NCBI GenBank assembly: GCA_022827325.1
Contig: JAJDTE010000143.1
Location: 16,034-80,033 of the forward strand
Source: Gammaproteobacteria bacterium
GTDB taxonomy: Bacteria > Pseudomonadota > Gammaproteobacteria > Arenicellales > Poriferihabitantaceae
Direction: 5' to 3'
DNA: 64,000 nt
Below are positions 15,749 through 59,016 of the stretch, piece after piece (position 1 is the first letter of the stretch; the number at the start of each line of letters is the position of its first letter). The position numbers and the translations under genes were made by a program. Below the pieces are notes generated by a model. It did not search any database. It was not told where the DNA came from and saw nothing but the letters and a program-made list of their open reading frames with translations.

Positions 15749-16906
15749 ATGCGACACGTCCTTTTCAGCCACGGTTTCCGTCCGTTCTTTCTTGGCGGCG
15801 CCCTCTGGGCCGCGGCCACCATGCTGTTCTGGGCCGCCCTGCTGACCGGGCACATCACGTTCGAGACCCCCTACGGCGTCGTCGTATGGCATTCCCATGC
15901 ACTCCTTTTCGGGTACGGATCGGCGATCGTGGCCGGCTTCCTGCTGACCGCCATACCGAACTGGACCGGGCGCCCGCCGGTCGGCGGCCCGGTGTTATTT
16001 GTCCTGTTCGCTGTCTGGCTGTCGGGCCGGGTGGCGGTCCTGCTCGCGGGCACGGTCGGGCTTGTTGCCGCGGCCATCGTCGACAGCCTCTTCCTGCTCG
16101 GAATGTCCGCCGTCGTCTTCCGGGAGATTGTCGCCGGGCGGAATCGCCGCAATCTCACCGTGGCAGTGATCGTGCTCCTTTATTGCCTGACCAATATCGC
16201 CTTTCATCTCGAGCTTATCCAGAGCGGCTATCCGTTCCATGCCACCAAGGCGGCGGTTTCGGTTCTCGTCATCCTGATCATGCTGATCGGCGGCCGGATC
16301 ATTCCCGGCTTCACCCGGAACTGGCTTACGGCCCAGGGCGCCCGGGCGCTTCCGGCGCCATTCAGTGCATTCGACCGGCTCGCGCTCGGTGTCGCCGTGT
16401 CCGCCCTGGCGATCTGGACCGTCTTCCCGTGGTGGCGGCTTACGGGCTGGACGCTCCTCCTGGCCGCGCTCATCCAGGCCGTCCGTCTTGCACGCTGGTC
16501 GGGCCACCGCACCTTCCGCGAACCCCTCGTTCTGATCCTGCATGTCGGCTATGCCTTCGTGCCGCTGGGCTTCGCCGCCGTCGGGGGCGCCATCCTGTGG
16601 CCCTACGCCGTTCCCGTCTCCGGATCGCTGCATGCCTGGACCACCGGGGCGATCGGCGTGATGACCCTCGCCGTCATGACCCGTGCAAGCAGGGGGCATT
16701 CCGGACGCCCCCTGACCGCCCCCGCCTCCACGCAGTTCATCTACCTGCTCGTGCTCCTTTCGGCCATCGCCCGGCTCGCCGCGGCCCTGCTGCCGGAATC
16801 GGCATTCCCGCTTCTCGTGTTCTCCTCCCTTGCGTGGGCGGCCGCCTTCTCCGCCTTCGTGATCTTCTACGGCCCGATGCTCCTGGAGTCCCGCGGGGAG
16901 GACTGA
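15749..16906 (+). CDS. nnrS: NnrS family heme/copper membrane protein
   Basis: GFRPFFL, WHSHALLFGY, GFLLTAIPNWTG, GGRIIPGFTRNW, LHVGY, HAWTTG and MTRASRGHSGR. Confidence 0.92.
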   Translation: MRHVLFSHGFRPFFLGGALWAAATMLFWAALLTGHITFETPYGVVVWHSHALLFGYGSAIVAGFLLTAIPNWTGRPPVGGPVLFVLFAVWLSGRVAVLLAGTVGLVAAAIVDSLFLLGMSAVVFREIVAGRNRRNLTVAVIVLLYCLTNIAFHLELIQSGYPFHATKAAVSVLVILIMLIGGRIIPGFTRNWLTAQGARALPAPFSAFDRLALGVAVSALAIWTVFPWWRLTGWTLLLAALIQAVRLARWSGHRTFREPLVLILHVGYAFVPLGFAAVGGAILWPYAVPVSGSLHAWTTGAIGVMTLAVMTRASRGHSGRPLTAPASTQFIYLLVLLSAIARLAAALLPESAFPLLVFSSLAWAAAFSAFVIFYGPMLLESRGED

Positions 16907-17038
16907 AGACCCGGGCCGAGGCGGGACCGGGAGGAGTGCTTTGGGGAGCCATAAGGGATTCCTTTCGCAAATGCGTGGACTTGGCCGGTGCCCGTCGCCA
17001 TAATCCCCCCGTCGACGGACCCGATGCGTGCACGTGCA

Positions 17039-17725
17039 ATGCCCGACCAGCTGATCGCCCCCTCCATACTCTCCGCGGATTTCGCCCGGCTGGGCGAGGA
17101 GGTGGACAATGTCCTCGCTGCGGGCGCGGACATGGTGCATTTCGACGTCATGGACAACCACTACGTCCCGAATCTCACCGTCGGCCCGCTGATCTGCGAG
17201 GCCCTGCGCGGACACGGCGTCACCGCCCCCATCGACGTGCATCTCATGGTCAAGCCGGTGGACCGGATCATTCCGGATTTCGCCGCCGCCGGCGCAACCT
17301 ACATCACCTTCCACCCGGAGGCGTCCGAACATGTCGACCGGTCCCTCCAGCTGATCCGTTCCGAGAACTGCCGGCCGGGCCTGGTGTTCAATCCCGCCAC
17401 GCCGCTGGATGCGCTGGAATACGTGATGGACAAGATCGACATGATCCTGCTCATGTCGGTCAACCCCGGGTTCGGCGGCCAGTCGTTCATCCCCGCCACG
17501 CTGGACAAGCTGAAGAAGGCCCGGCGCCTGATCGAAGCGAGCGGCCGTGACATCCGCCTGGAAGTCGACGGCGGGGTGAAGGTGGACAACATCGCCGAGA
17601 TCGCCCGGGCCGGTGCCGACACCTTTGTCGCGGGCAGCGCCATCTTCGGCGCAGGAAGGTCCGAAGACCCCAACCGGTACGATACCGTGGTCACCTCCAT
17701 GCGGGACCAGCTGGCAACGATCTGA
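17039..17725 (+). CDS. rpe: Ribulose-phosphate 3-epimerase
   Basis: [34 protein letters not shown] and VDGG. Confidence 0.97.
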
Positions 17726-17738
17726 TTCCCCCTTCAAT

Positions 17739-18452
17739 ATGCAACCACTGACGGCCCGCACGCTGCTGTTCGACCTCGACGGCACCCTGATGGACACGGT
17801 GCCGGATATCGCCGGCGCCGCCAATCGCACCATGCGTGCCCTCGGCCTTGCGGAAAGGCCGGAGGAGGACCTGCGCATGTGGACCGGCAACGGTTCGGAC
17901 AGGCTGATCAAGCGCACCATCACCGGGGAATGGGACGGGGAGCCGGACCCCGCGTTGCTGGAACGGGCGCTGCCGCTCTTCTTCGATCTCTACGCCAAAC
18001 ACATCCACGAGCGGAGCCGGTTCTACCCCGGCGTGGAGGAGACCATGGCGCGCCTTCGCGCGGAGGGCTTCACTCTCGCCTGCGTGACCAACAAGCCCGA
18101 CCGTCACACCGGCCTGCTCCTGGAGGTTTCGGGCCTGTCCCGCCACCTGTCGACCTGGGTGGGCGGCAACACCATCGGGGTGCGCAAGCCGGACCCGGGC
18201 CAGCTGCTGCATGCCGCCGAGACCCTCGGCAGCGCCCCATCGGAATGCGTCATGATCGGAGACTCCATGAACGATATCCAGGCCGCGCGGGCTGCGGGCA
18301 TGCGGGTGATCTGCCTGACCTACGGCTACAACCAGGGGGTGGACCTGCGAACGGGCAGTCCGGACCGCCTGCTCGATGATTTCCGGGAACTCGTCGAGCA
18401 TCTTGCGCCGGCATCCGGAATCAGCGACCGTAAGCTATCCTCCGTGGTCTGA
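17739..18452 (+). CDS. gph: Phosphoglycolate phosphatase (HAD)
   Basis: FDLDGTLMD, VTNKP, KPDP and IGDSMNDIQAARAAG; conserved rpe-gph-trpE context. Confidence 0.9.
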   Translation: MQPLTARTLLFDLDGTLMDTVPDIAGAANRTMRALGLAERPEEDLRMWTGNGSDRLIKRTITGEWDGEPDPALLERALPLFFDLYAKHIHERSRFYPGVEETMARLRAEGFTLACVTNKPDRHTGLLLEVSGLSRHLSTWVGGNTIGVRKPDPGQLLHAAETLGSAPSECVMIGDSMNDIQAARAAGMRVICLTYGYNQGVDLRTGSPDRLLDDFRELVEHLAPASGISDRKLSSVV

Positions 18453-23779: not shown

Positions 23780-24642
23780 CAGACCCGCTCCATCTTCAGC
23801 CAGCGCGACGCGGCCAGATAGACCAGGGTGATCACCACCATGAGAATGATGGACAGCGCCGCCGCCGTGGGGAAGTCGGCCCGCCGCGTGATCTGCAGCA
23901 TGATGATCTGCGGCAGCACCAGCTCGTTGTTGCCGCCGAGAATCTGCGGCGTGATGTAGTCCCCGATGCACAGCACGAAGGTGAGAAACGCACCCACCAC
24001 CACCCCGGGCAGTGTCAGGGGCAGGATCACGTACCAGAAGGTCTGCAGCGGACTCGCGCCGAGATCCATCGCCGCCCGGCGGTAGTTGGGCGAGAGCTGC
24101 ACCAGGTTCGCGTAGATCGTCAGCGTCAGCAGCATGACGAAGAAATGCACGAAACCCGTCACCGTGGCGGCCCGGGTGGCGGTGATCTCAAGGGGGCTGT
24201 CGATGATCCCCGCGCCCACCAGGAACTGGTTGAGATAGCCGCCGCGGGAAAGCACCAGGAGCCAGGCATAGGAGCGCACCACGTAGGATGTCCAGAACGG
24301 CAGGATGGCGAGGAGCAGGGCGAGCCGCTGCCACCGGCGGGGCACCCGCTCGGCGATGATCCAGGCCAGGGGATAGGCCAGGATGATGGAGACCACCGTC
24401 ACCAGGACGGTGATCTCCAGGGAATTCTGGAGCCCGGCCACGAAGTGGGGCTTGTCGAGGAACCCGGTGTAGTTGTCCAGGTTCCAGCTCCGCACCAGCC
24501 CCGTGCCCGCCCGCTGCCACAGGCTGTAGCAGATCATCATCACGAACGGGACGATGAAGAATGCCAGGGTCCAGAGGGCGGCCGGGCCGACGAAGGCCCA
24601 GCCGCGGGAGACCCCGGCGTTCCGGGTGACGGGCACCGTCAC
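23779..24642 (-). CDS. ABC transporter permease (PotB-like)
   Basis: LAYPLAW, LPFWTSYVVRSYAW, AAMDLGA and GDYITPQILGG. Confidence 0.88.
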   Translation of the reverse strand: MTVPVTRNAGVSRGWAFVGPAALWTLAFFIVPFVMMICYSLWQRAGTGLVRSWNLDNYTGFLDKPHFVAGLQNSLEITVLVTVVSIILAYPLAWIIAERVPRRWQRLALLLAILPFWTSYVVRSYAWLLVLSRGGYLNQFLVGAGIIDSPLEITATRAATVTGFVHFFVMLLTLTIYANLVQLSPNYRRAAMDLGASPLQTFWYVILPLTLPGVVVGAFLTFVLCIGDYITPQILGGNNELVLPQIIMLQITRRADFPTAAALSIILMVVITLVYLAASRWLKMERV

Positions 24643-24657
24643 CGGAAAGATCGCGAA

Positions 24658-25713
24658 TCAGCGCTGCAGGAACTCCGTCCAGATGTCCTGCATCCTGGCG
24701 TCCAGTTCCGCGTCGGGGGCCGGGTAGAGCTGGGCATTGGCAAGATACTTCTCCTGGTCATCCCAGCGCAGGGCGGCGCGCTGCTGGTCGGACAGGTGCT
24801 CGGCTGCCCTGCTGTTGGCGGGCATCGCCCAGTAGCAGGACGACGTCGCGAGGCGCGCCTGTCCTTCCGGGCTCAGGATGTACTGCACGAGCTTGAGGGC
24901 CAGGTCCGGTTTCCCGGAATCCGCAAAGACGCCCACGGACTGGGACCAACGGACCGCGCCCTGTTCGGGAATCACCCAGTCGAGATGCGGCAACTCGCCG
25001 GTCAGCCCGGCGGTCACCCATTCGCCGCCCCCCACCAGGATATCCACCTCGCCGGTGGCGATGGCCGTCTGGCTGGAAACCACCTCGCCCACCTGCTTGG
25101 CGACATCCTTCATGGCAAACAGCTTCTCCCGGATGGCGGGCAGGTCGGATTCCTGGATGTTGGCGGTCTCGATGCCGAGGCTGATGGCCACCAGGCCGAT
25201 CATCGGCAGATAGTAGTCATAGAGCGCGATCCGGCCCTTGTATTTCTCGCTCCACATCACCGCGATGTCCTGGAAATCGGCGACGTCGACGTTGTTCTTG
25301 TTGTAGGAAATGGTGTTGTAGCCGAATTTCTCGGTGACGGCGTAGGTCTTGCCGTCGATGACGTGGTTCTCCGGCATGACGATTGCGGGGAACAGGTCCG
25401 CCGTGGGCAGCGCCTCTTCCGGCAGCGGTGCCAGGATGCCGGCCTCCACCACCCGTGGCACGTCGATGCCGTCCACCACGAAGACGTCCCAGTCGCCGGG
25501 CTGGGACTGTTCGATGATGGACAGTGCGGTCCCGGTGCCTTCGTAGTCCTTCAGGTTGACCTTGACGTTGTTGGCCTTCTCGAACGGCTCGATGAATGCA
25601 GGATCGGTGTGATCGCACCAGACCAGGGCGTTGAGTTCCTCCTGGGCCGTCGCGGCGTGGGCGCCGAGCAGCAGGGATGCCGACAGCAGGGAAGCGATGG
25701 TGGTCTTGTTCAT
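24658..25713 (-). CDS. ABC transporter substrate-binding protein (PotD/PotF family)
   Basis: Signal peptide (ATA|Q), W...D..FIEPFEK, and YILSPEGQ; RBS GGAG upstream. Confidence 0.85.
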   Translation of the reverse strand: MNKTTIASLLSASLLLGAHAATAQEELNALVWCDHTDPAFIEPFEKANNVKVNLKDYEGTGTALSIIEQSQPGDWDVFVVDGIDVPRVVEAGILAPLPEEALPTADLFPAIVMPENHVIDGKTYAVTEKFGYNTISYNKNNVDVADFQDIAVMWSEKYKGRIALYDYYLPMIGLVAISLGIETANIQESDLPAIREKLFAMKDVAKQVGEVVSSQTAIATGEVDILVGGGEWVTAGLTGELPHLDWVIPEQGAVRWSQSVGVFADSGKPDLALKLVQYILSPEGQARLATSSCYWAMPANSRAAEHLSDQQRAALRWDDQEKYLANAQLYPAPDAELDARMQDIWTEFLQR

Positions 25714-25831
25714 GGTCTCCTCATTTTGGTGATGGTTATGAATGTTCGGGGGAAGGAATCATCACCCACGGGGCGAAGGCGCGTCAACAACACCGGGTGC
25801 GGCCGGCCCTCCCCGGCGCTATACTGCCGCC

Positions 25832-26566
25832 ATGAAAACAAGGGTGACCCCGCAGGAATGGTACCGGACCGAGCGCCTGGCGGACGACGTCACGCTGATT
25901 TCGGAGCCCTGGATCAAGGCGTTCTACCGCTGCAATATCTGGCATGTGCGCGGCCGGGACCGCGACATGCTGGTGGACAGCGGCATGGGCGTGGTGAGCC
26001 TGCGCGAACAGGTTCCGCTGGTGACGGAGAAACCCTGCCTGGCGGTCACCAGCCATACCCATTTTGACCATATCGGCGCCCACCACGAGTTCGGGGACCG
26101 CCTGGTCCATCGCGCCGAGGCCGACCTGCTGGCGGCCCCCACCCGGGCGGCAACCCTGGCCGACCCCTACGTCACGGACGACATCTTCACTGCCCTGCCG
26201 CCGGCGCCCTACACCTCCACGGAATATGCCGTGAGGGCGGCCCCGGCCACCCGCCTGCTGGAGGACGGGGACACCGTGGACCTCGGCGACCGGCGGTTCC
26301 TGGTCGTCCACACGCCGGGCCACTCGCCGGGCGGCATCGCGCTGTTCGAGCAGCAGACCGGCATCCTGTTCTCCGGCGACATCGTCTACGACGGCCCGCT
26401 GATCGAAGACACCTACCATTCCGATGCCGCGGATTACTACCGCAGCATGGTGAGGCTTCTGGACCTGCCCGTCCACGTGGTCCATGGCGGCCACTTCCCG
26501 AGCTACGGCCGGGACCGGCACCGGGCCATCATCCGGGCATGGCTGGACGCCAGGGAGGCCGGCTGA
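25832..26566 (+). CDS. MBL-fold metallo-hydrolase
   Basis: SHTHFDHIG, HTPGHSPG, SGD and GGH motifs. Confidence 0.9.
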   Translation: MKTRVTPQEWYRTERLADDVTLISEPWIKAFYRCNIWHVRGRDRDMLVDSGMGVVSLREQVPLVTEKPCLAVTSHTHFDHIGAHHEFGDRLVHRAEADLLAAPTRAATLADPYVTDDIFTALPPAPYTSTEYAVRAAPATRLLEDGDTVDLGDRRFLVVHTPGHSPGGIALFEQQTGILFSGDIVYDGPLIEDTYHSDAADYYRSMVRLLDLPVHVVHGGHFPSYGRDRHRAIIRAWLDAREAG

Positions 26567-33749: not shown

Positions 33750-34019
33750 TCCAGACCGGTTCCCTCGTATCGTTGCCGGATTCCGTTTCCCCTTCCGGTT
33801 CTTCATCAAGACCGGCACATCATATGATGCCGGTATCTACGATCATGCCCGGACAGTCTTCATTCCGTCCTTGGCCGGCTCATTCCACGGAATAGCGCCT
33901 TCCATGTCACCCGGATGCCGTTCCTTAGGAGGACACGGGCAGTGGTGGTAGCGATCCATTGACGTTTCCTATTCTCAGCAACCGGATATGGGCTGGGCTG
34001 GGGTTCGGAAGGCTCCAGA

Positions 34020-36047
34020 TTAAAATCCTGCCAATAGCGGCAAACCGACCGGATCGTCCGGGAGTGTTGGTGCCATGGGTAAGGAGACCTGCCACTGGGG
34101 CTTGTCCGGGAACAAGCCTGAGAATGTGGCGGCAGCAAGGCAGTCGACTCCCGGCTCACCGAGCAGCAATGCCAGTTTCTTGCCATTCGCCTGAACGATC
34201 AGCGCCCGACATCCGGGCAGCTGGTGACTGCCGGACGAGCTGAATTCGGGATACTTGCATAATTGCCCCGACAGTGCTCGCAGCAGATGAAATGCAGGCC
34301 TGGGATTACACAGGCGATCCAGTACTCCATGGCGAACAAAGTAACCGCGGTCGATATCCATGAACGTATCCGCGAAGGCCCAGGTATTTTCAAATGCGTT
34401 GGCCGCGAACATCGCCTCGGCAACGCGATTGGCGGTCCAGTGATCATTGCGAATGGGCGCGGCAGGATTCGATCCGCAAAGGCGTATATGCACTGACGCC
34501 TTGGCACCCAGTTCAGCGGCGGTTCGTGACGCTGCCTCGATGCCATCCCAGGGCCAGACTTCCGCTGTGACCCGGAACACGAATCCTGCGACGCCATCAC
34601 CAATATCTTCCTTCAGCCAACGCAGCTGTTCGGTATCGTCCGGCAGAAACCCCTGGTTTATCACATGGTAATAATGACCGGCTTCAGCCCGCAGTTCGGA
34701 TATCGAACGTAACCTCGAAAGGTAAATATCCAGCGGTATTTCTCTGGCCGCCTGCCGAATATCGGTGACATTCAGGTCACGCTCCCCCCAGTCGATGCAG
34801 ATTTCCCAGGCGCTGAACAGGTCGTGGTGCCGTCCGATCATGGCCCGGTCCCGATCGGTCGGGGCACCGAATGTGAACAAGACGAACTCCTGTCCGAAGG
34901 CGCGTAACTCGCGCATGCGGTCGCGCGTCGGCTGGTGCAGCAGGTCCCGCAACGGGACGCGCAATCGGCGCACACCGAGTTCCCACAACGCCATCAGCGG
35001 ATAGTCGTTGCGAACCTCCTTGCGGTCGAATTCATCAAGGCCCCCGGTCGGGGGAATTTCCACGATCTCCGCCCAGTTGTGACGCATGTCGAAACCGAAT
35101 CGGAAATGCGGATTGGTAAGCGGATGAGCAGCCGGGAGCAGTGGGGAGACAGCCTCGTCGAGAGATGCGGACTCGAGTACGCGCCCGAAAGTGCGCCTGA
35201 TTTCGACGAGATGCCCTTGCTCGTGTACGTGGACCAGGAAATAGGCGAGTTTCGGCCGGTCGTTCCGGCCGGCCTCGTCTTCGTCACCCGGCGGGCTACG
35301 GTACATCTCGCTGTAATCCTGGCGGACGAAGGAGGTCGAAGGTACCAGGTAGCAGTCGGTTTGGGCGTAACGGTTGTACCAGAAATTGTGCACATGGCCG
35401 GCCAGCATGACTTCCACCCCGTAGCGTTCCAGCAACCCGAGCAGCCAGCCGCGACCGGGTTCGGCCAGGTTGTCGTAGTTCACCTCCTCGTCGGGCCGGG
35501 TGAAATACGGCGGATAGTGGATATGCAGGAAAATGCGCCGGCCACGATGTCGTTCAAGGTCCGCTTCCAGCCAAGCCTGCTGGTTCGCCTCGGCAGCCAG
35601 TCCGGAGTTGATGATCTGGGCATTGACAATGACGAAGTGAACCGAGTCGTGATCGAAACTCTGGTAGTGTGGGCCGAAATGCTCCTCCCACAAGGCCACG
35701 TATTCATCGCAAACCGAGGCTGCCGGAGCCCAAGGATTCGGCTTGTCGCCGATGTCGTGGTTTCCTGGTGTCAGGTAAATCGGATGCCGCAACTGCCCTA
35801 TCTGCTGAAGAAAACAGTGAGCCGCCCTGCGATACAGATCCGGTATCGCCGGAACCGGGTGGATCAGATCGCCGATATTGACAACAAACTCCAGGTCCAT
35901 CGAGTTGAGTTCGCGCACCACGTGGCGCATGCGGGCGTTGGCGAGGCGATTGACGGCATACGGCGAATTGCACTCGTCCTCGCCCTGGTTCAGATGGGTG
36001 TCTGTTATGGCCGCATAGGTGAAACGGCGTGCTCCAAGTCGTTTCAA
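34020..36047 (-). CDS. Calcineurin-like metallophosphoesterase fused to an unidentified C-terminal domain
   Basis: DTH, GD, GNHD, H-x-H-YP and GHVH motifs in the N-terminal ~280 aa; the remaining ~390 aa are not recognisable. TTG start. Confidence 0.8.
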   Translation of the reverse strand: MKRLGARRFTYAAITDTHLNQGEDECNSPYAVNRLANARMRHVVRELNSMDLEFVVNIGDLIHPVPAIPDLYRRAAHCFLQQIGQLRHPIYLTPGNHDIGDKPNPWAPAASVCDEYVALWEEHFGPHYQSFDHDSVHFVIVNAQIINSGLAAEANQQAWLEADLERHRGRRIFLHIHYPPYFTRPDEEVNYDNLAEPGRGWLLGLLERYGVEVMLAGHVHNFWYNRYAQTDCYLVPSTSFVRQDYSEMYRSPPGDEDEAGRNDRPKLAYFLVHVHEQGHLVEIRRTFGRVLESASLDEAVSPLLPAAHPLTNPHFRFGFDMRHNWAEIVEIPPTGGLDEFDRKEVRNDYPLMALWELGVRRLRVPLRDLLHQPTRDRMRELRAFGQEFVLFTFGAPTDRDRAMIGRHHDLFSAWEICIDWGERDLNVTDIRQAAREIPLDIYLSRLRSISELRAEAGHYYHVINQGFLPDDTEQLRWLKEDIGDGVAGFVFRVTAEVWPWDGIEAASRTAAELGAKASVHIRLCGSNPAAPIRNDHWTANRVAEAMFAANAFENTWAFADTFMDIDRGYFVRHGVLDRLCNPRPAFHLLRALSGQLCKYPEFSSSGSHQLPGCRALIVQANGKKLALLLGEPGVDCLAAATFSGLFPDKPQWQVSLPMAPTLPDDPVGLPLLAGF

Positions 36048-36077
36048 GTTCCTGCTTCCAAGATCAGCAAGTCGCCA

Positions 36078-37229
36078 TCATACGGCACCGTCGCCTGAAT
36101 ACTGTCGCTTGATGCCGAGAATTTGCTTCCATTCCCGCGATGCTCTCAATCCAGTGATGTGCTCCTCGAACGGATCGGTATGCAGCCCGTTCACGGGGCG
36201 ATCGGCTTCTGACCAGACGCCACGCCGCCGGCGCGCTTCGCGCTGGTCGATGAGCCAGTCGTGGTAGCTTTCCAGCACCAGTCGACCGCCCGGACCAACC
36301 AATGCCGCCGCGCGGAAACAGGCATCCAGATCGCGGTACCGCTGGGCCTCATCTTCATCGATCGCGATTGGCTCGATGTTGAGGGTGTAGCCTTCTGCCT
36401 GGTGGACCTGCCCGGCGACGCCGGCGTAAACCCCCTGGTCGCGCAGGCTCATCTGCTCTTGGTAAATGCCGATGTATTGGTCGGTTATTGGTGAAGACAG
36501 CGCTTTGTGATCCCGCAGCCGGCCGCGTTCGCGTGCGACCGCACCCTGGTGAAAGTCGAGCAGACGGTTTTCGTACTCTTCACCAAGAAATTCACAGACT
36601 CCGCGTAACACGTTCACGGGATCTCGAACCAGATTCTCATAGTGAACGTCATGCCAGTTTTCAGCGCCGAGTTCGTCACGCAGGATTTGGGCGTGGCGTT
36701 GACTGTGCGACCAGTTTTCAGCCGCAACGAAAACGTTGTTGGGCCCGAAATCGGACCCGATCGCGTCAACGCTCATGTCGCGTCCGTCCCGCGTAATGCA
36801 GACGATCTTGGCACCAGGGAAGTCGGTGAGAATTTCGCGGACGAAATACAGGTTGTTCGGTGTTTTCTCACCCCACCGCGGCTTGCCAACCCATTTGGCA
36901 TAGGATTCGAGCATTGCGCAGAAAATTCCCGCGAAACTGGATTCTCTGGCGCATTCGAGGATTTCCGATACGGCGGTTCGGGGATTGAACGGCATGCCCC
37001 ACAGAGGATTGCGAAGCCCGAATATCATTTCATCGGCCAGCGTGTGCAGGTTTTCTGGTTCGTCGAGCGAACCGTAACTGTAAAGATATCCGCGAAATCT
37101 CGGGTACCACCATGACACCTCCGGTACCGCCAGCCGGGAATGCATGCCGAGAATCGCCATCAGCAACGTCGACCCCGAGCGTTCCTGGCCCACGATAAAA
37201 AACGGCTTTTCGTCGAGATCGATCGGCAT
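36078..37229 (-). CDS. PAPS-dependent sulfotransferase family protein
   Basis: 5'-PSB motif IVGQERSGSTLL, WGEKTP, 3'-PB motif RDGRD...D and YENLV.DP. Confidence 0.87.
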   Translation of the reverse strand: MPIDLDEKPFFIVGQERSGSTLLMAILGMHSRLAVPEVSWWYPRFRGYLYSYGSLDEPENLHTLADEMIFGLRNPLWGMPFNPRTAVSEILECARESSFAGIFCAMLESYAKWVGKPRWGEKTPNNLYFVREILTDFPGAKIVCITRDGRDMSVDAIGSDFGPNNVFVAAENWSHSQRHAQILRDELGAENWHDVHYENLVRDPVNVLRGVCEFLGEEYENRLLDFHQGAVARERGRLRDHKALSSPITDQYIGIYQEQMSLRDQGVYAGVAGQVHQAEGYTLNIEPIAIDEDEAQRYRDLDACFRAAALVGPGGRLVLESYHDWLIDQREARRRRGVWSEADRPVNGLHTDPFEEHITGLRASREWKQILGIKRQYSGDGAV

Positions 37230-37248
37230 CGAACTTGCGCTCTCATTA

Positions 37249-37289
37249 TTGACATGAAAGATTCTATGTTTAGAATGTTAGTATGTCAA
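37249..37289. promoter_or_regulatory. Overlapping bidirectional sigma70 promoters forming a dyad
   Basis: Plus strand: TTGACA(37249-54)-N16-TAGAAT(37271-76). Minus strand: TTGACA(37289-84)-N17-TAGAAT(37266-61). Confidence 0.75.
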
Positions 37290-37329
37290 AATCTATTTCG
37301 ATTTCAGATCAGCACGAAAGGAAGATCCC

Positions 37330-38064
37330 ATGCCTCTAGCCCCCATGCTACGAACCACGCCTGGCAAACTGTACGTGCACATCGCCAGCGTCATCCGTCG
37401 CCGGATCGAGAACGGCGATTGGAAACCCGGGGACCAGATTCCAACGATATCGAGCTTGGCCAAACAGCTCGATGTGGCCATCGTTTCGGTGCGCCAGGCG
37501 CTGGATTTGCTCGAGCAGGACGGTCTGCTGCGCCGCCAGCAGGGCAAAGGAACCTTCGTTGAAGAGAGTGCCGCGATAAAGCAGATCTGGCTGGAGATGG
37601 ACTCGACCTGGGGCGCGCTGGTCAAGAAATGGGAAGGTATCAGCCCAACGATCCTGGCGGCGCATGACCATGTAGTCGATGTGCCGCTGCGGCCGGGAGA
37701 GGGGTTTCCGGTCGGCCCGTATCACTTTATGCGGCGGCTGCACGCCTTCGAAGGTGCGCCGTATGCGATCGTCAACATATACCTCGACATGGCAATCTAC
37801 GAATGGGCGCCGGATCGTTTCGACGCCGAGCGCGTGGTGCCCATCATCCAGGCGATGGATGATGTCGAGATTGGTGCGGCCACCGAGGTGCTGAGTGTTG
37901 CCGAAGCAGAGGCCAATACCGCTGATCTGCTCGGTATCCGGCTGCATTCCCCGATTGCCGAAGTCCGGCGTGTCGTGAAAAACCGCGAGGGTTTCGTGAT
38001 CTTCCTGGCCGAATGCGTTTACCGAGGCGACATGGTGAAACTCGAACGCCGCTTCGTCATATGA
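37330..38064 (+). CDS. GntR family regulator, HutC/UTRA subfamily
   Basis: wHTH LY..IA...PT...LA...V...VRQAL..L...G...QGKGTFV followed by a UTRA-type domain (...YRGD). Confidence 0.9.
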   Translation: MPLAPMLRTTPGKLYVHIASVIRRRIENGDWKPGDQIPTISSLAKQLDVAIVSVRQALDLLEQDGLLRRQQGKGTFVEESAAIKQIWLEMDSTWGALVKKWEGISPTILAAHDHVVDVPLRPGEGFPVGPYHFMRRLHAFEGAPYAIVNIYLDMAIYEWAPDRFDAERVVPIIQAMDDVEIGAATEVLSVAEAEANTADLLGIRLHSPIAEVRRVVKNREGFVIFLAECVYRGDMVKLERRFVI

Positions 38065-38117
38065 GCCGGCCTGCACCGGCAGGCAGGCAACCACCAACCG
38101 CGCATAGGAGGTTAGAA

Positions 38118-39080
38118 ATGAAGTTTTTATTCAAAACAGCCAGTCTGCTGGCCGCGCTGCTCCTGTTCCCCGCGACAGCCCAGGCCGAATTTCCGAACAA
38201 GCCGATCACGGTGCTGAACGGTGCCGGTGTTGGCGGCGGTGTCGATACCTACGGGCGCATCGTCGCAAGCGTCGCACCGGATGTCCTCGACGGTCAGCCA
38301 ATGATCGTCGTAAACCGGCCTGGCGGAGCCCATACGGTAGCGTTGAAGCACCTGAAACGTGCCAAACCGGACGGCTACACCCTCGCGATGGTGTCTTTCG
38401 GCAGCAGCGTCATTGCTTCTACGTTGCGCGATATCGGACTCGACCCCATCAATGAGTTCGAGTTTGTCGCCCAAGTTGGCGCCATCGTGCCCGCGCTGTT
38501 TGTCAAGCAGGGCAGTGCCTATGCGGACCCGACATCGGTCATCGAAGCCGCCAGGCAAAATCCCGGAAACATGAGCTATGGCCACTCCGGCCGGGGCTCG
38601 GCGACAAATATCGCCATGGTCGCCTGGCTTGCCGCAAACGATATCTCGATGAAGGACGTGCCGTTCAAGGGCGGCGGTCAGTCGCGAGCCGCGCTGATTG
38701 CCGGCGACGTCGATTTCCTCAGTACCGGCATCCAGCAGTACAGCGGTTTCAAGGACAAGATCAACGCGCTCGGTGTATTTCCGGGCGTACGGGACAATGC
38801 CTTTTCCGAGGTGCTGACGATGAAGGAACAGGGTGTCGCATTTGTCGATGTCTATTCGCCGGTGATGATCCTGGCGCCGAAAGAGACACCACCCGATGTG
38901 ATCGCCCGATTGGAAAAGGCGATCGCCGATACGGTCGAGAATCGGGCCTTTACCAAGCTTGCCAAGTCCGCCAACCTAAACGTCGTGTTTGCCAGCAGCG
39001 AGGACTCCAGGACGTTGATGGAACGTCTATCACGCGAGTGGGCGTCGACGCTCGATCAGGTGAAGGCATCTGTAAACTAG
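38118..39080 (+). CDS. tctC: Tripartite tricarboxylate transporter substrate-binding protein (TctC/Bug)
   Basis: RBS AGGAGG, signal peptide AQA|EFPNKPI, GGGVD..GR, NRPGG, PDGYTL and VPFKGG. Confidence 0.9.
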   Translation: MKFLFKTASLLAALLLFPATAQAEFPNKPITVLNGAGVGGGVDTYGRIVASVAPDVLDGQPMIVVNRPGGAHTVALKHLKRAKPDGYTLAMVSFGSSVIASTLRDIGLDPINEFEFVAQVGAIVPALFVKQGSAYADPTSVIEAARQNPGNMSYGHSGRGSATNIAMVAWLAANDISMKDVPFKGGGQSRAALIAGDVDFLSTGIQQYSGFKDKINALGVFPGVRDNAFSEVLTMKEQGVAFVDVYSPVMILAPKETPPDVIARLEKAIADTVENRAFTKLAKSANLNVVFASSEDSRTLMERLSREWASTLDQVKASVN

Positions 39081-39094
39081 GTCGTCCCGGTCCG

Positions 39095-39574
39095 GTGCCA
39101 CATGCGGATCGCATCACCGGTGGGCTCGTTATCGCTCTTGGCAGCTTTCTGTTCGTATTCAGCCGTTCGATCGAAGGATTTGGTGATGATCCGGTCGGTC
39201 CCCGGTTCTTGCCGCAGACAGCAACCCTGGGACTGGTTCTGCTGGGCGCCCTGCTGGTTGCTAATCCCGGAGTCAGGCATGCCAGGACCGACCTGACCGA
39301 CATCGCGACCGAGGCGAAATCACAAGGATTGCCGCCGGTTATTCTGGCAATGGTCGGAATCGTCTATGTGGGCCTGTTTCACGTGGTCGGTTATCTGCTG
39401 GCCACGGCACTGGTTCTGCCGTCCGTGCTGGTTGTCTTCGGCCATCGCCGGCCGGTGAGAATCCTGGTCCTGAGCCTCCTGGTCACAGCAGCGTTCTACG
39501 GAGTCTTTTTTGTCCTGCTAGGTGCCCACGACCCACCCGGCGTCTGGCTCGATCTCAGGGGGCTGCTCGACTAG
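39095..39574 (+). CDS. tctB: Tripartite tricarboxylate transporter small membrane subunit TctB
   Basis: Four to five TM helices, VGPRFLP, GYLLAT; lies between tctC and tctA. GTG start inferred. Confidence 0.8.
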   Translation: MPHADRITGGLVIALGSFLFVFSRSIEGFGDDPVGPRFLPQTATLGLVLLGALLVANPGVRHARTDLTDIATEAKSQGLPPVILAMVGIVYVGLFHVVGYLLATALVLPSVLVVFGHRRPVRILVLSLLVTAAFYGVFFVLLGAHDPPGVWLDLRGLLD

Positions 39575-39586
39575 CCGACTATTCCC

Positions 39587-41104
39587 GTGGATATCCTGGC
39601 CGGCTTTGAAACGATTACGGGCGATCCGGTGGCGATGGCTGCCCTGTTGCTGGCCGCGGTGGCCGGGGTCATCGTCGGCGCCATACCCGGTCTCACGACG
39701 GCAGCCGCCATTGCCATGCTGGTACCGTTGACATATTACGTTCCGCCGCTGCCGGCGCTCGTATTTCTCTATGTGATGGGCAAATCCGGCCGGTTCGGTG
39801 GATCGATATCCGCCATTCTGTTCAATACACCGGGCACCGCGGCATCTGCGGCCACAATGCTCGACGGCCATCCACTGGTCAGGAAAGGAAAGGCCGGCAA
39901 GGCTCTGAAAATGGCTTCAGTCGCCTCGGTTTGCGGCGACTTTTGCGGTGACCTGATCCTGATCTTCGGCGTCGTGTTCATCGCCCAGTACACTGAAAGA
40001 CTGGGACCGCCCGAATACTTTGCCGCCCACCTGATGGCGTTCGTCCTGATTGGCAGCATGATTGGCAAATCCATCCTCAAGGGATTCATCAGCGGCCTGT
40101 TGGGTGTTGTCCTCAGCACAGTCGGTCTCGACACCATCAGCGGAATGCCTCGGCTTACTTTCGGTATCGCCGAGCTCGAGGGAGGCCTGTCCCTGGTACC
40201 GCTGCTGATCGGCGTCTTCGTGCTTTCCGAGGTGTTCGTCCGGAGCGAACAGTCGGCCGCCGCCAGCGTCGAGACCTCGCCCCGTCAATCGCAAAATCCG
40301 GGTGATCAGACGCTGCATTGGTCAGAAATCAGGCCCTGTGTTCCGGTCATACTGCGCTCCACCGGCATCGGCTCGATGATCGGAATGCTGCCGGGAATCG
40401 GCTCGGCGGTAGCTTGCTTCATTGCCTACGGGGAAGAAAAACGCCGGGCACCGGATCCGGAGAAATGGGGAACCGGCGAATTAAGGGGTATTGCCGCACC
40501 GGAATCGGCGAACAACGCCGTATCCGGACCAAGCATGATTCCCTTGCTTGCCCTCGGCATTCCAGGCAGCACGATCGCCGCCATCCTGGTATCGGTCTTC
40601 CTGATACACGGCATAACCGTCGGCCCGTCCATCTTCGTCCAGGACCGCGATCTTGTCTTTGGTCTGTTTGCCAGCGGCCTGATTGGCATACTGGTTTACG
40701 GTGCCATCGGTTATTATGCCGGCCCAGTGGTCGGACGGCTGGTGGCCATGCTGTCACCGAACATGATCTACCCGTTCGTTTTCCTGACAGCGTTCGTCGC
40801 CGCCTACTCGGCACGAAACAGCCTGCTGGACGTGTTGGTTATGACCCTCTTCGGTATCGTTGGCTACGGCATGAAAAAGTTCGATTTCAGTCCGGCCGCG
40901 CTGATCATTTCGTTCGTGCTCACACGCGGTGCAGAAGAAAGCCTGCGCCAGTCGCTGATTATCAGCGACAACGGCCCGTTGATATTCTTCGAGCGTCCAT
41001 TTGCCATCGGATGCTTTGTCATCATGGCGGTGCTGCTGGGAATCCGCGTACGTACTCGGCGCAACCCGGTTAGCACAAGGCAAGATAAAATGACCTCCGG
41101 GTAA
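39587..41104 (+). CDS. tctA: Tripartite tricarboxylate transporter large permease TctA
   Basis: GAIPGL, GGSISAIL.NTPGT, DGHP, APESANNA and PLLALGIPGS. Confidence 0.93.
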   Translation: MDILAGFETITGDPVAMAALLLAAVAGVIVGAIPGLTTAAAIAMLVPLTYYVPPLPALVFLYVMGKSGRFGGSISAILFNTPGTAASAATMLDGHPLVRKGKAGKALKMASVASVCGDFCGDLILIFGVVFIAQYTERLGPPEYFAAHLMAFVLIGSMIGKSILKGFISGLLGVVLSTVGLDTISGMPRLTFGIAELEGGLSLVPLLIGVFVLSEVFVRSEQSAAASVETSPRQSQNPGDQTLHWSEIRPCVPVILRSTGIGSMIGMLPGIGSAVACFIAYGEEKRRAPDPEKWGTGELRGIAAPESANNAVSGPSMIPLLALGIPGSTIAAILVSVFLIHGITVGPSIFVQDRDLVFGLFASGLIGILVYGAIGYYAGPVVGRLVAMLSPNMIYPFVFLTAFVAAYSARNSLLDVLVMTLFGIVGYGMKKFDFSPAALIISFVLTRGAEESLRQSLIISDNGPLIFFERPFAIGCFVIMAVLLGIRVRTRRNPVSTRQDKMTSG

Positions 41105-41524
41105 ATTGGCAGGCACGCGGGTGATCCGCGGCGGAACAAGGCATTGACAGACCACCGGATCCGGCTGCAATTCAGGGCGTCCGGCGATTACGCCGGCGGG
41201 GGCAGCCCCCATGTCGGGGCAGCGTGATTGCCCATTGATGGCAGAAAGTATGACTATCGCCCTACCTCGTTGAAATCCATGGGGAAATTCCGGGAACAGC
41301 GACAGCATGGAAAAGGCCTTGGTCGCCAGCGGCACCGGGGATAGCAGCGTGGCGAACGACAGAGCCGGGGCAATCCGGAAACACCGTTCCTCCCGAAATA
41401 ACGCCGGTACCGCGTGTGACAGGCGCAGCAGATCCTTCCCCTTTTGCGTCAGTGATGGCGTGTATCTTGCCTCGACCATGGCAGCGACATATATTCCCGG
41501 CAGTACAGCAGCGCCCCCTGGTCC

Positions 41525-41875
41525 ATGACCCGCATCTATCACAACCCGTGTTGTTCGAAATCCCGCGCCGTCCTTTCCCTGCTCGAGGCCAGGGGCATCG
41601 AACCGGAAGTGGTCCGCTACCTGGAGACGCCACCCGACGCGGACACGCTGCGCGGCATCGCCGACGCCCTTGGCTGTTCCGTGGGTGATTTCATGCGCAA
41701 GGGGGATGCCCTTTACCGGGAACTCGGCATCGCCGACGGAAATCACGACGAGGATGCGCTGATCCGGCTGGTCGTGGACAATCCCGTTTTGCTGGAACGT
41801 CCCATCGTTGTGCATGATGGCCGTGCCGTGATCGGCAGGCCGCCGGAAGCCGCGCTCACCCTGTTCGACCGCTGA
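41525..41875 (+). CDS. arsC: ArsC family (glutaredoxin-type) arsenate reductase-like protein
   Basis: IYHNPCCSKSR, LERPIV and IGRPPE. Confidence 0.85.
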   Translation: MTRIYHNPCCSKSRAVLSLLEARGIEPEVVRYLETPPDADTLRGIADALGCSVGDFMRKGDALYRELGIADGNHDEDALIRLVVDNPVLLERPIVVHDGRAVIGRPPEAALTLFDR

Positions 41876-41897
41876 CCCGATCACCGGAGACATCAAC

Positions 41898-42467
41898 ATG
41901 AACAAGCCTGCAGAAACCGTTTCGTTCACCCGCATGGAAGACGGCACGCGGGAAGAATACGCATTGCTGGCCGTCCACGAGGAGTCCGCCATCGGCGCCC
42001 TGCCGGAACGGCTCATGAAGGCCATGGAGCAGCTGGACGGCAGTCTGGAGGGCTACCGGGTCTCCCGTCTCGAGCATTCCCTCCAGTCCGCCACGCGGGC
42101 GTACCATGCGGGCGAGGACGAGGAGATGGTGGTGGCCGCCCTATTGCACGATATCGGCGACATCCTGGCCCCGGCCTCCCACAGCGAGATGTCCGCGGCC
42201 GTCCTCAGACTCTATGTCTCCGAGCGGGTGCACTGGATCATCAAGCATCATGGCCTGTTCCAGTCGTACTACTATGCCCATCACTATGACAAGGACCGGC
42301 ATGCCCGCGACCGTTTCAGGGACCACCCCTGGTACCAGGACTGCGTGGACTTCTGCCGGAACTACGACCAGAACTGCTTCGACCCGGAATACCCGTCCCT
42401 GCCGCTGGAGTTTTTCCGGCCCATGGTGGAACGGGTGATGTCGAAGCCCCGGGAGTATTCCTTCTGA
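41898..42467 (+). CDS. HD-domain protein (PhnZ/TmpB-like phosphohydrolase/oxygenase family)
   Basis: LEHSLQSATRA, AALLHDIGD, H, HH and YDQ..FDP.Y motifs. Confidence 0.8.
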   Translation: MNKPAETVSFTRMEDGTREEYALLAVHEESAIGALPERLMKAMEQLDGSLEGYRVSRLEHSLQSATRAYHAGEDEEMVVAALLHDIGDILAPASHSEMSAAVLRLYVSERVHWIIKHHGLFQSYYYAHHYDKDRHARDRFRDHPWYQDCVDFCRNYDQNCFDPEYPSLPLEFFRPMVERVMSKPREYSF

Positions 42468-42503: not shown

Positions 42504-44930
<2,427 letters not shown>

Positions 44931-45819: not shown

Positions 45820-46926
45820 TCAGATCCGCATGGGCATCACCAGCCAGACGGATACCTCGTCGTCCGGCTGGTTCAGGATACAGATCCCGTCATTTCCCTG
45901 GAAATTCAGCAATACGGTATCGCCCGCGATTGCCTTTGCAGCTTCAATGAGATAGGAGACATTGTACCCGGTCTCGATGGGCTCGCCGTCGTACTCGACG
46001 GAGATCTCCTCCAGCGCTTCCTCCTGTTCCGGGTTGTTCGCGGTCACCGCGATGTTGCCTTCGGCCAGGCGCAGCTTCACACCCTTGAACCGATCCGTGG
46101 TCAGGATTCCCGCACGGTTCAGGATGTCAATCAGTTCACCGCGGTTGACATGGATACCGGTCGCGCTCATCGTGGTCTCCAGCACACCCTTGAATTCGGG
46201 AAACTTTCCATCGATCAGCTTGCTGATCATCGTGGTGTTTCCACGGGTCATTCGCAGGTGGTTCCTGCTCATCTGCACGGTAATCTCGGTTTCTTCCACG
46301 TTTCCGAGAAACCGGGTGATCTCGGCCACCGCCTTGCGCGGCACAATGATCTGGCGCAGTTTCTCTACCGAGAGCTGAATGGTTTCCTCGCTTTGCGCGA
46401 GCCGGTGCCCGTCGGTGGCGATGGCCCGCAGGGTGTTGAGGCCGAGTTCGAACAGGATGCCGTTGAGGTAGTAGCGCACATCCTGGACAGCCATGGCGAA
46501 AGCGGTCTTTTCAAGGATCCTTTTGAGATTTAGATCATTGATTTTAAATCTTTCCTCAAAGCTGGTTACCTCGATCCTCGGGAAATCCTCAGCCGGCAGG
46601 GTCTTCAGCGTGTACCTGCTTCGCCCGGAACTGACCAACACCTTATCACCACTGCTCGCGAAGTTGATCACTGCCTCTTCCGGCAGCATCCGGCAGATAT
46701 CCAGCACTTTCCTCGCGGACACGGTGAAGGCGCCGTTGTCCCCTTCCACATCCTCCAGGGTCTCGGAAATTTCCAGCTCGAGATCCGTTCCGACAATGGT
46801 GAGCTGTCCGTCTTCAAGACCGAAGTAGAGGTTGGCGAGAACCGGCAGGGTCTGTTGCTTCTCAACAACACTCCCGACCAGGCTCAACGTGGGAAGAAGG
46901 GCGGCTCTTTCAATCTTGATATTCAT
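45820..46926 (-). CDS. dnaN: DNA polymerase III beta clamp
   Basis: GTDLE, QDVRYYLNG, ATDGHRL, KLIDGKFP and C-terminal VMPMRI. Confidence 0.97.
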   Translation of the reverse strand: MNIKIERAALLPTLSLVGSVVEKQQTLPVLANLYFGLEDGQLTIVGTDLELEISETLEDVEGDNGAFTVSARKVLDICRMLPEEAVINFASSGDKVLVSSGRSRYTLKTLPAEDFPRIEVTSFEERFKINDLNLKRILEKTAFAMAVQDVRYYLNGILFELGLNTLRAIATDGHRLAQSEETIQLSVEKLRQIIVPRKAVAEITRFLGNVEETEITVQMSRNHLRMTRGNTTMISKLIDGKFPEFKGVLETTMSATGIHVNRGELIDILNRAGILTTDRFKGVKLRLAEGNIAVTANNPEQEEALEEISVEYDGEPIETGYNVSYLIEAAKAIAGDTVLLNFQGNDGICILNQPDDEVSVWLVMPMRI

Positions 46927-47230: not shown

Positions 47231-48601
47231 TCAGGCGCCGAACAGGCGTTGCAGGTTGCGGTAGTCCTCCCGCACCTTGTTGTCGGACCGCAGCAGCTCC
47301 TCCACCTTGCGGCAGGCATGCAGCACCGTGGTGTGGTCGCGCCCGCCGAAATGATCCCCGATCTGGGGCAGGCTGTAGTTGGTCAGTTCCTTGACGAAGG
47401 ACATCGCGATCTGCCGGGGGCGGGTGATGTCCCTGGACCGTTTCTTGGAGATCAGGTCCGAAACCCGTACCTTGAAGTATTCCGCCACGGTTTGCTGGAT
47501 ATTCTCGATGCTGAGCCGGGATTCCCGGTACATCACGATATCGCGCAGCGCCTCCCGGGCCAGGTCGAGGTCGATGGCACGGCCCGTGAAACCGGAACTC
47601 GCGATGATCCTGTGCAGGGCGCCTTCGAGCTCCCGCACATTGGAACGGATGGTGTTGGCGACGAAGAACGACACGTCCGAGGGCAGGGATTCCCCGAGTT
47701 TCTTGGCCTTGTACTCGAGGATTGCCACCCGGGTTTCCAGTTCCGGCGGTTCGATGGCCACGGTGAGACCGCTGCTGAACCGGGACACCAGTCGTTCCTC
47801 CACGTCGGTGATGGCCTTGGGAAGACGGTCGCTGGTGATGATGATCTGGTGCTGGCCCTCCAGCAGGGCGTTGAACGTATGGAAGAACTCCTCCTGGGTC
47901 TGTGTCTTGCGGGCGAAGAACTGGATGTCGTCGATCAGCAATGCGTCCAGGGAGCGGTAGTAGTGCTTGAACGCATTCATGGAATTGGTGCGGAGCGCCT
48001 TGACCATGTCGTTGACGAACAGTTCCGAGCGGATATAGACAACCTTGGCGCCGGGATTGCCTTCGAGGATCAGGTTCCCGGCGGCCTGCATCAGGTGTGT
48101 CTTGCCGAGCCCGACTCCGCCGTAGATGAACAGCGGGTTGTAGGAACTGCCCGGGTGCTTGCCAACCTGCTGCGCGGCGGCCCTGGCCAGCTGGTTGGAC
48201 GTGCCCTCGATGTGGTTGGCGAACGTGAAATCACGGTTGATGCCGTTGCTGGACTGGGGTACGGGACGGGTGTTCCGGCCATCGCCGTATTCAGTGGCAA
48301 ACGAAATGCCGTTGCCCGAACTGTTGCCGGGGCGCGCCGCCTGGGGGCGGTCGCTGGCAAGGCTGCCGATCTCGCACTGGACCTGGCTGATGCCTGCATC
48401 CATGGAAACCACGGCCGATTCGATCGTGTCGAGCAGGTTCTGCCTGACATGGTTGAGAACGTACCGGTTCGGTGCCAGCAATTTCAGGGTCTGGCCCCGG
48501 ATGCTGGAGTGGAGCGGCAGAAGCCAGGTATTGACCACATCATCCGCCATTTCACCTCTCAGCTTCTCCAGGCAGATGTGCCAGATATTGTTATTGCTCA
48601 T
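47231..48601 (-). CDS. dnaA: Chromosomal replication initiator DnaA
   Basis: YNPLFIYGGVGLGKTHL, LLIDDIQF, SNVRELEGAL and GGRDHTTVLHA. Confidence 0.98.
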   Translation of the reverse strand: MSNNNIWHICLEKLRGEMADDVVNTWLLPLHSSIRGQTLKLLAPNRYVLNHVRQNLLDTIESAVVSMDAGISQVQCEIGSLASDRPQAARPGNSSGNGISFATEYGDGRNTRPVPQSSNGINRDFTFANHIEGTSNQLARAAAQQVGKHPGSSYNPLFIYGGVGLGKTHLMQAAGNLILEGNPGAKVVYIRSELFVNDMVKALRTNSMNAFKHYYRSLDALLIDDIQFFARKTQTQEEFFHTFNALLEGQHQIIITSDRLPKAITDVEERLVSRFSSGLTVAIEPPELETRVAILEYKAKKLGESLPSDVSFFVANTIRSNVRELEGALHRIIASSGFTGRAIDLDLAREALRDIVMYRESRLSIENIQQTVAEYFKVRVSDLISKKRSRDITRPRQIAMSFVKELTNYSLPQIGDHFGGRDHTTVLHACRKVEELLRSDNKVREDYRNLQRLFGA

Positions 48602-58870: not shown

Positions 58871-59016
58871 ACAGGTTGATAATATTCGTTCAGGCCGTGC
58901 AATACAAATCCCTTCAAGGAGGACCCCGATACAGGGATTTGCGGCGAGGCCGCGATGCCGGCCGGGCATCGCGGCCCTTCATCGAACGCACCCGCCGCGG
59001 CAGCGCGCTTCGGCGC

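Follow-up and report, generated by a model that had tools for sequence, protein, structure and literature searches.

The locus described here raises the question of whether a sulfotransferase, a two-domain metallophosphoesterase and a solute importer, encoded side by side in one small region of a bacterial chromosome, act together, and if so upon what. The genes lie in a 7.8-kb block (33750-41524) of the window, by which is meant the whole stretch of 64,000 nucleotides analysed, from the genome of Gammaproteobacteria bacterium (Arenicellales; assembly GCA_022827325.1, contig JAJDTE010000143.1, positions 16,034 to 80,033). The block houses six Pfam-supported genes in two divergent arms: on the minus strand, a gene for a sulfotransferase followed by one for a 675-residue metallophosphoesterase (MPE) fusion; and on the plus strand, genes for a GntR/UTRA regulator, TctC, TctB and TctA, in that order. 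An initial annotation of this DNA had proposed a three-part system of sulfotransferase, MPE and tripartite tricarboxylate transporter (TTT), in which the MPE might recycle the nucleotide product of sulfation, 3'-phosphoadenosine 5'-phosphate (PAP), or its sulfated form PAPS. Comparison of the MPE with its relatives points to a different grouping, in which the conserved unit appears to be the importer together with the MPE fusion, often accompanied by a sulfatase. We consider it probable that, taken jointly, this MPE-importer unit is real, the sulfotransferase is not a conserved part of it, and PAP recycling is not what the MPE does; our confidence in any specific chemistry is much lower. The genes and the intervals between them are as follows.

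34020-36047, minus strand: MPE fusion, 675 aa, TTG start; PF00149 matches residues 11-221 only
35181-36047, minus strand: N-terminal metallophosphoesterase domain of the fusion (PF00149, 42.4 bits against a cut-off of 21.5)
34023-35180, minus strand: C-terminal part of the fusion, residues 290-675, a (beta/alpha)-barrel plus beta-sandwich of PslG/GH39-like fold, without a Pfam family
36048-36077, minus strand: 30-nt spacer from the sulfotransferase stop codon (TGA, 36080-36078) to the TTG start of the MPE gene, with the purine-rich stretch GGAAGCAGGAAC shortly before that start codon
36078-37229, minus strand: TPST/CurM-like PAPS-type sulfotransferase, 383 aa (PF13469, 115 bits against a cut-off of 27)
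37230-37329: divergent control region of 100 bp, GC 0.36, with overlapping back-to-back promoter-like sites and nested palindromes
37330-38064, plus strand: GntR-family regulator of HutC type, winged helix-turn-helix plus UTRA domain (PF00392, 66.7 bits; PF07702, 42 bits)
38118-39080, plus strand: TctC periplasmic binding protein (PF03401, 149.8 bits)
39038-39574, plus strand: TctB small membrane subunit (PF07331, 67.2 bits)
39587-41104, plus strand: TctA large membrane subunit (PF01970, 435.6 bits)

The metallophosphoesterase fusion and its neighbours

All 98 family sequences compared share without exception the metal-ligand motifs of the MPE fusion, namely D16xH18, G59D60, G95N96H97D98, H177 and G217H218xH220. 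In its AlphaFold2 model (mean predicted local distance difference test score, pLDDT, 91.5; predicted template modelling score 0.92) the N-terminal domain finds Rv0805 and GpdQ as its best Foldseek matches, with SMPDL3A/B and purple acid phosphatases also among the hits. With GpdQ, the glycerophosphodiesterase of Enterobacter aerogenes, and Rv0805, a class III cyclic-nucleotide phosphodiesterase, it shares the two-metal calcineurin-like fold and the complete motif set DxH, GD, GNHD, H and GHxH; the two are its top structural matches (E = 1e-14 to 1e-13, TM-score TMt 0.65-0.75) and are found as sequence matches as well. It differs from both in that identity is only 16-20% over the aligned part, and in the additional 385-residue barrel plus sandwich. 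Scores fall far below the NCBIfam equivalog cut-offs for CpdA (32.9 against 225) and SpdA (23.9 against 400).

The C-terminal half likewise has many Arg, Asp and His residues that do not vary across the same 98 sequences; the invariant positions there include D320, R322, D338, E339, R342, K343, R346, D348, R363, R377, H461, R522, D564, D566 and R567. No Pfam match to this domain was found in any of 58 members at E <= 1, glycoside hydrolase models included, nor in any of 28 at E <= 5, and a search of the PDB found no sequence relatives. With the whole protein as query, Foldseek aligns the barrel with PslG, the GH39 endoglycosidase of Pseudomonas aeruginosa (5bx9, 4zn2 and 9g17; TMt 0.52-0.53 over about 460-470 columns). 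The barrel appears to differ from PslG and other clan GH-A barrels in having non-conserved residues, or His or Arg, at the presumed glutamate positions: the consensus at the candidate strands reads AWEIGxN and ASVHLRMxG, with no conserved Glu at the strand ends, where strand numbering was deduced from DSSP and the clan's two glutamates are taken to close strands 4 and 7. The barrel seems to be without the catalytic glutamate pair of clan GH-A. On this reading of the strands it is treated here as a domain that holds a ligand or has some other non-glycosidase role, and it is probably not a glycosidase. Feature matches in the ESM Atlas (0.86-0.90) are to GH5, GH39, GH42 and apionate-lactonase-type barrels, and are leads only.

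A phmmer search of 1.84 billion representatives found the C-terminal half in 617 clusters, the best 150 of which are mostly fusions of 600-720 residues or shorter pieces. The family numbers 1381 matches among 8000 scored candidates, with very uniform length, and relatives of the fusion are encoded at 579 of 601 pattern matches in representative genome contigs (at least 579 genomes). The MPE fusion is a widespread, large and uncharacterised conserved family. Full-length relatives on plasmids or other replicons were limited to two, in Variovorax and Cupriavidus.

To place the fusion in context, genome contigs were scanned with the MPE-family alignment and the neighbourhoods of the best 80 of the 579 relatives were compared (individual loci carry L numbers). 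The window's own species lies outside these 80, among which the highest identity to its MPE is 63%. Open reading frames (ORFs) were clustered, the clusters named by Pfam and NCBIfam, profiles built from them, and the genes recounted within 6 kb of the MPE in 78 of the 80 loci; the remaining two were dropped, the MPE ORF running off the contig. A TTT gene was present in 38 of the 78, and a TTT or tripartite ATP-independent periplasmic (TRAP/TAXI) transporter gene in 49; in 37 loci a transporter gene directly adjoins the MPE gene on the same strand. ROK regulators were found in 18 loci and IclR regulators in 13. As a control for distance, loci extending 9.4 kb or more to both sides of the MPE, 43 in number, were divided into bins of 0-1, 1-3.5, 3.5-6.5 and 6.5-9.5 kb, which contained TTT genes in 18, 15, 2 and 3 loci, respectively. 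Sulfatases in the same bins were found in 2, 5, 12 and 4 loci, with a peak at 3.5-6.5 kb that corresponds to a fixed place in the module. No homologue of the window's sulfotransferase was detected by tblastn in any of the 80 loci, and only one of the 78 (L036) has a profile-level sulfotransferase within 6 kb, a 286-residue protein scoring 31.8 bits that lies 4.6 kb away among unrelated genes. The expectation that the MPE would be found with transporter genes elsewhere was therefore borne out, whereas the two enzymes do not co-occur in these loci, and the proposed three-part system is not a conserved one.

Several gene orders recur. The layout sulfatase-TctC | ROK-TctB-TctA-MPE is found in Ruegeria and Leisingera (Roseobacteraceae), Rhodospirillales, Arenicellales, Cocleimonas and a Syntrophobacter metagenome-assembled genome (MAG). 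The order sulfatase-sulfatase-DctP-DctQ-DctM-MPE also recurs among the relatives, as does an MPE with DUF3604 plus a 461-residue sulfatase; in Burkholderiales, and likewise on one replicon of Variovorax and one plasmid of Cupriavidus, the layout is IclR | MPE-TctC. The locus closest to the window in gene content (L020, 8284-14680, a Desulfovibrio sp. MAG) has GntR/UTRA-MPE-TctC-TctB-TctA compactly on one strand, without a sulfotransferase. A FastTree phylogeny groups the window's MPE with L001, L006 and L035, all of them sulfatase-linked, in a clade of 14 that has full support. As regards the sulfotransferase, two protein records, P0004 (MPE, 77% identity) and P0124 (sulfotransferase, 82%), are deduced to share one contig, and outside the window the two genes have probably stayed together in no more than a close relative. 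The nearest MPE relatives are 95% and 77% identical to the window's protein.

Two of these loci deserve separate mention. On the conjugative plasmid of Cupriavidus oxalaticus (L082, NZ_CP032520.1, 211575-216494) an MPE fusion-TctC-SulP segment lies directly downstream of IS21 and IS91 transposases, a context which suggests that the module moves between genomes. The Rhodospirillales MAG locus L006 (OZ271842.1, 1-21087) is a sulfatase-rich island with two TTT systems, one TAXI-TRAP system, two ROK regulators, five sulfatase-family genes, a GMC oxidoreductase and the MPE fusion, and its genome encodes a second MPE paralogue, which is that of L036.

Sulfatases were present within 6 kb of the MPE in 23 of the 78 loci. 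Of the 33 profile hits 31 were tested further, a fragment and a 35-bit hit being left out, and 20 of the 31, from 17 loci, passed the choline-sulfatase equivalog cut-off of TIGR03417. The best PDB match of the MPE-linked sulfatases is BetC (6fny, E = 5e-116). BetA-like GMC oxidoreductases occur in six loci, and the three tested score 559-583 against the choline-dehydrogenase cut-off of 605. In these two features the MPE relatives resemble bet-type systems for utilisation of choline-O-sulfate; the window, in contrast, has no sulfatase, BetA, BetB or BetI, and the regulators of the relatives are ROK, IclR or GntR instead of BetI. Neither the block nor any of the 53 ORFs scanned in the window has a sulfatase domain, and the window is therefore a derived variant, and not a member, of the sulfatase-TTT/TRAP-MPE module. 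One paper states that choline-O-sulfate transporters as yet unknown exist in Ruegeria pomeroyi (PMC12442346), and another records weak activity of BetC on phosphocholine too (PMC10132767).

Other neighbours of the MPE include Xsc (L076); TauD/TfdA-family dioxygenases at or beside the sulfatase position (L011, 4356-5426; L058, 1678-2787; and, by clustering only, L077, 7325-8398); anion carriers, namely a DASS symporter in L021 and L077, a YeiH-type protein in L025 and SulP in L082; an enolase paralogue with a CoA-transferase; PhnD-type ABC systems; and FAD plus GcvT demethylase-like proteins. Regulators of the ROK, HutC and IclR types are typical sensors of sugars or acids. As judged from gene content, the neighbours point to metabolism of organosulfates, organosulfonates or choline-type esters, or of a sulfated or phosphorylated sugar acid, without fixing the substrate. 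Among the papers covered by a literature search, none connects the family of the MPE fusion with sulfatases, with TTT importers or with sulfotransferases.

The sulfotransferase and the regulated importer

The sulfotransferase belongs to a tightly conserved family of about 384 residues, with full-length identities of 52-99% among the 120 listed of 487 matches. Invariant in 37 members are G14xE16R17S18G19xT21, E37, EKTP, R147D148xR150D151 and S159, among them the 5'-phosphosulfate-binding loop and the 3'-phosphate-binding RDxRD/Ser motif; these loops align with the PAPS loops of TPST1 and CurM/OLS, and the invariant residues include a candidate catalytic Glu. The AlphaFold2 model (pLDDT 92.6) has as its best structural matches TPST1/2 with bound PAP (E = 1e-9, TMt 0.60-0.71), and also the sulfotransferase domains of OLS and CurM. 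The protein thus looks like a working PAPS enzyme, as the initial annotation had supposed, and the alternative there envisaged, that it might act as a kinase, is unlikely because the PAPS-binding motifs are kept and the model matches PAP-bound TPST. It resembles TPST1/2 and the activating domains of CurM/OLS in membership of the Sulfotransfer_3 family, in its PAPS-binding loops, in the candidate Glu and in fold, and differs from them in about 100 extra C-terminal residues, conserved within its own family only. Unlike TPST and CurM/OLS, it has in the window neither a peptide substrate gene nor a polyketide synthase beside it. No fusion to other domains was seen among proteins of 672-2000 residues, which is weak evidence, and no close relatives were found on plasmids, where matches are at most 25% identical.

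The word fusion applies to the MPE protein by itself, with its two domains; the sulfotransferase has an ORF of its own, 30 nt away. The sulfotransferase and the MPE fusion are two genes, likely to be on one transcript.

The description of two divergent arms with a shared, symmetric promoter region holds. Scored against a sigma-70-like consensus, the control region has a plus-strand site TTGACA-16-TAGAAT at 37249-37276 and a minus-strand site TTGACA-17-TAGAAT at 37289-37261. Both agree with the consensus at 11 of 12 positions, and they overlap, one per strand, inside nested inverted repeats, TTGACAT/ATGTCAA and AAGATTCTA/TAGAATGTT. Such sites number four in an 8.5-kb scan, against a mean of 3.1 in shuffled sequence. 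The nested palindromes are a candidate GntR operator, and the GntR/HutC regulator probably represses the operon pair.

The regulator itself scores below every NCBIfam equivalog cut-off, among them HutC (74.9 against 220) and PhnF (67 against 156.8). The longest ORF for TctC begins at 38013, and the likely start is M36 (38118), directly before the signal peptide. TctC, TctB and TctA are encoded consecutively and make up a complete TTT set. The description of the block as a ligand-regulated uptake module joined divergently to two enzymes is supported. Other TTT uptake loci under GntR/HutC control likewise have a winged helix-turn-helix plus UTRA regulator beside tctCBA, and a palindromic operator-like promoter; where they ordinarily contain dehydrogenases and other catabolic enzymes, the window couples the importer to a two-domain hydrolase of an uncharacterised family and a sulfotransferase.

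Alternative explanations and a proposed route

The proposal from which the analysis started was that an imported organic acid is sulfated by the sulfotransferase, or desulfated by transfer to PAP, while the MPE recycles PAP or PAPS or removes a phosphate from the substrate. It accounts for the placing of the two enzyme genes 30 nt apart on one strand, with a promoter region in common with the TTT arm; the intact PAPS-type motifs and TPST-like fold suit it; and nucleotide phosphodiesterases are known among MPE enzymes, Rv0805 being a top fold match. Yet the MPE is without a close sulfotransferase in 80 of 80 loci, and without one at profile level in 77 of 78, and this near-universal absence argues against PAP or PAPS recycling; nor does the C-terminal barrel of 385 residues, rich in invariant positions, have any place in PAP hydrolysis. 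The enzymes known to hydrolyse PAP have different folds (CysQ/IMPase and NrnA/DHH). Desulfation by reverse transfer to PAP, to our knowledge thermodynamically plausible for aryl sulfates only, sits poorly with the usual partner of the MPE, a choline-sulfatase-type enzyme, which implies hydrolysis. The PAP-recycling role was rejected on co-occurrence, and the proposal as a whole is regarded as improbable. A comparably small likelihood attaches to the idea that the MPE fusion is a sulfoesterase or sulfate-eliminating enzyme working with the sulfotransferase, either in sulfate activation of the CurM type or in a cycle of sulfation and desulfation. The activating sulfotransferases of CurM and OLS are indeed among the sequence relatives of the window's enzyme, SoxB is a two-metal enzyme of the MPE superfamily that releases sulfate, and the neighbourhoods of the relatives are rich in enzymes of sulfur esters and sulfonates and in anion exporters (choline-type sulfatases, TauD-family proteins, Xsc, DASS, YeiH-type and SulP carriers). 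Set against this, the closest folds are all phosphoesterases, sulfatase activity is undocumented for this branch of the MPEs, and the Burkholderiales loci of the IclR | MPE-TctC type contain no sulfur enzymes.

Somewhat less unlikely, though still not favoured, is that two separate units merely share an intergenic region, a GntR-TTT operon for some ordinary carboxylate and an unrelated sulfotransferase-MPE pair, brought in by one acquisition event. The sulfotransferase was not found in any MPE locus examined, the window's TTT is no orthologue of the MPE-linked TTT systems, and Alpha- and Betaproteobacteria have TTT genes in great number, all of which this explanation accommodates. It does not explain why TTT/TRAP genes are far commoner close to the MPE than at a distance, why the set of GntR/UTRA regulator, MPE and TctCBA recurs in the Desulfovibrio locus, why the two promoters overlap in a single palindromic operator-like region, or why composition is uniform over both arms.

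Since the importer-MPE unit is conserved among relatives, and the window has a sulfotransferase where they carry a sulfatase, the block is read here as an acquired, ligand-induced module. In full, this reading is that the module imports and hydrolyses an anionic ester, with the sulfotransferase as a lineage-specific accessory; it is put forward tentatively, and may well prove wrong in one or other part. TctC would bind the anionic ester in the periplasm and TctAB import it; the cytoplasmic MPE fusion would then cleave a phosphoester bond, most likely that of a diester, while the Arg/His-rich barrel might hold a sugar-, polyol- or amino-alcohol-like anionic part. The TPST-like sulfotransferase, an addition of this lineage only, would use PAPS for O-sulfation of the alcohol so released, or of some related acceptor, and the effector of the UTRA domain would be the substrate or a product.

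Several points weigh against this account. Identity between the window's TTT proteins and those of the MPE-linked systems is no more than 37-39% for TctA and 31% at best for TctC; orthology was rejected on these values, and the MPE-TTT link therefore holds for the transporter class, not for one orthologous system. No TTT, TRAP or TAXI gene lies within 6 kb of the MPE in 29 of the 78 loci, some of which are short contigs, and the best 80 of 579 loci are a non-random sample with many interrelated members. The choline-sulfatase cut-off names a family and is no proof of substrate. The argument on the GH-A glutamates compares DSSP strands with a family consensus and the clan's usual motif, and is not a structural alignment. 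Finally, the role given to the sulfotransferase derives from its adjacency to the MPE in one lineage only.

Origin of the block, its surroundings and its meaning

Lower GC and more A/T at third codon positions had been noticed from the letters of the sequence, and measurement agrees: the block has a GC content of 0.588, against 0.658 in the upstream and 0.648 in the downstream flank, and the mean GC content at third codon positions (GC3) is 0.692 for its six genes and 0.832 for 33 genes with Pfam support in the rest of the window (Mann-Whitney p = 2.5e-6), both arms being uniform in composition. The non-coding buffers reported on either side were also recovered:

33750-34019 (270 bp): from the PBP1A stop codon to the end of the MPE gene, without a supported ORF; GC 0.567; no Rfam match
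41105-41524 (420 bp): ahead of the ArsC-family gene, with short or overlapping ORFs only; GC 0.614

Neither contains a convincing ORF, an Rfam match or a tRNA. By its base composition the block is foreign and was probably acquired. A search of its borders for hallmarks of mobile islands found no flanking direct repeats, mobility genes, tRNA or RNA family, so that the case for acquisition is one of composition alone.

The nearest flanking genes are those for PBP1A (ending at 33749) upstream and an ArsC-family protein (starting at 41525) downstream. The flanks consist of core genes, continuing downstream from the ArsC-family gene through an HD-domain gene to gyrB-dnaN-dnaA. With gyrB (42504-44897), dnaN (45820-46926) and dnaA (47231-48601) all on the minus strand, the low-GC block lies a few kb from the probable region of the chromosomal origin. 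The ArsC-family gene (116 aa) and the HD-domain gene just past the block (41525-42467) are both host-like in GC3; the HD-domain protein has weak partial matches to the HD oxygenases of phosphonate degradation (PhnZ-type, 45.6 bits against a cut-off of 214.6).

Further away, the segments 90-5002 and 8276-13140 contain a respiratory nitrate reductase cluster (the C-terminal part of NarG, with NarH and NarI) and genes for a malyl-CoA-lyase-like protein, two CoA-ligase subunits and serine hydroxymethyltransferase, which recall those of the serine cycle. Three ORFs of about 640 residues each (13519-15423, 15995-17923 and 24145-26067) have no Pfam match, a low GC3 of 0.61-0.68 and an odd amino-acid composition rich in Gly, Asp, His and Arg; no mutual similarity was seen in the two pairs compared, and they are probably wrong-strand ORFs lying over unidentified genes. 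A 782-residue ORF at 58876-61224 (GC3 0.72) has an isochorismatase domain at residues 579-774 only, its N-terminal 570 residues matching no family.

Clusters of regulator, importer and hydrolase are ordinary enough; the hydrolase here, a two-domain protein of at least 579 representative bacterial species, is not. Its second domain belongs to no Pfam family. What is new is accordingly the uncharacterised family of MPE-barrel fusions and its association with transporters and sulfatases, and not a conserved sulfotransferase system. At its most specific, and as little more than speculation, the fusion of MPE with a PslG-like barrel could be a widespread esterase of the cytoplasm, so far unrecognised, with a part in the marine catabolism of choline esters or organosulfates, fed by TTT or TRAP importers and acting alongside BetC-like sulfatases, with the window encoding a route of import, hydrolysis and sulfation to a sulfated solute such as choline-O-sulfate; if that were true, its sulfotransferase would be the first bacterial one of this kind. 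In marine Alpha- and Gammaproteobacteria the MPE is steadily associated with TTT/TRAP importers and with enzymes of choline-sulfatase type, which suggests that a step is missing from the picture of how dissolved organic esters of sulfur or phosphorus are turned over, and the window, as a natural variant with a sulfotransferase in the sulfatase's place, provides a handle for identifying the alcohol that they share.

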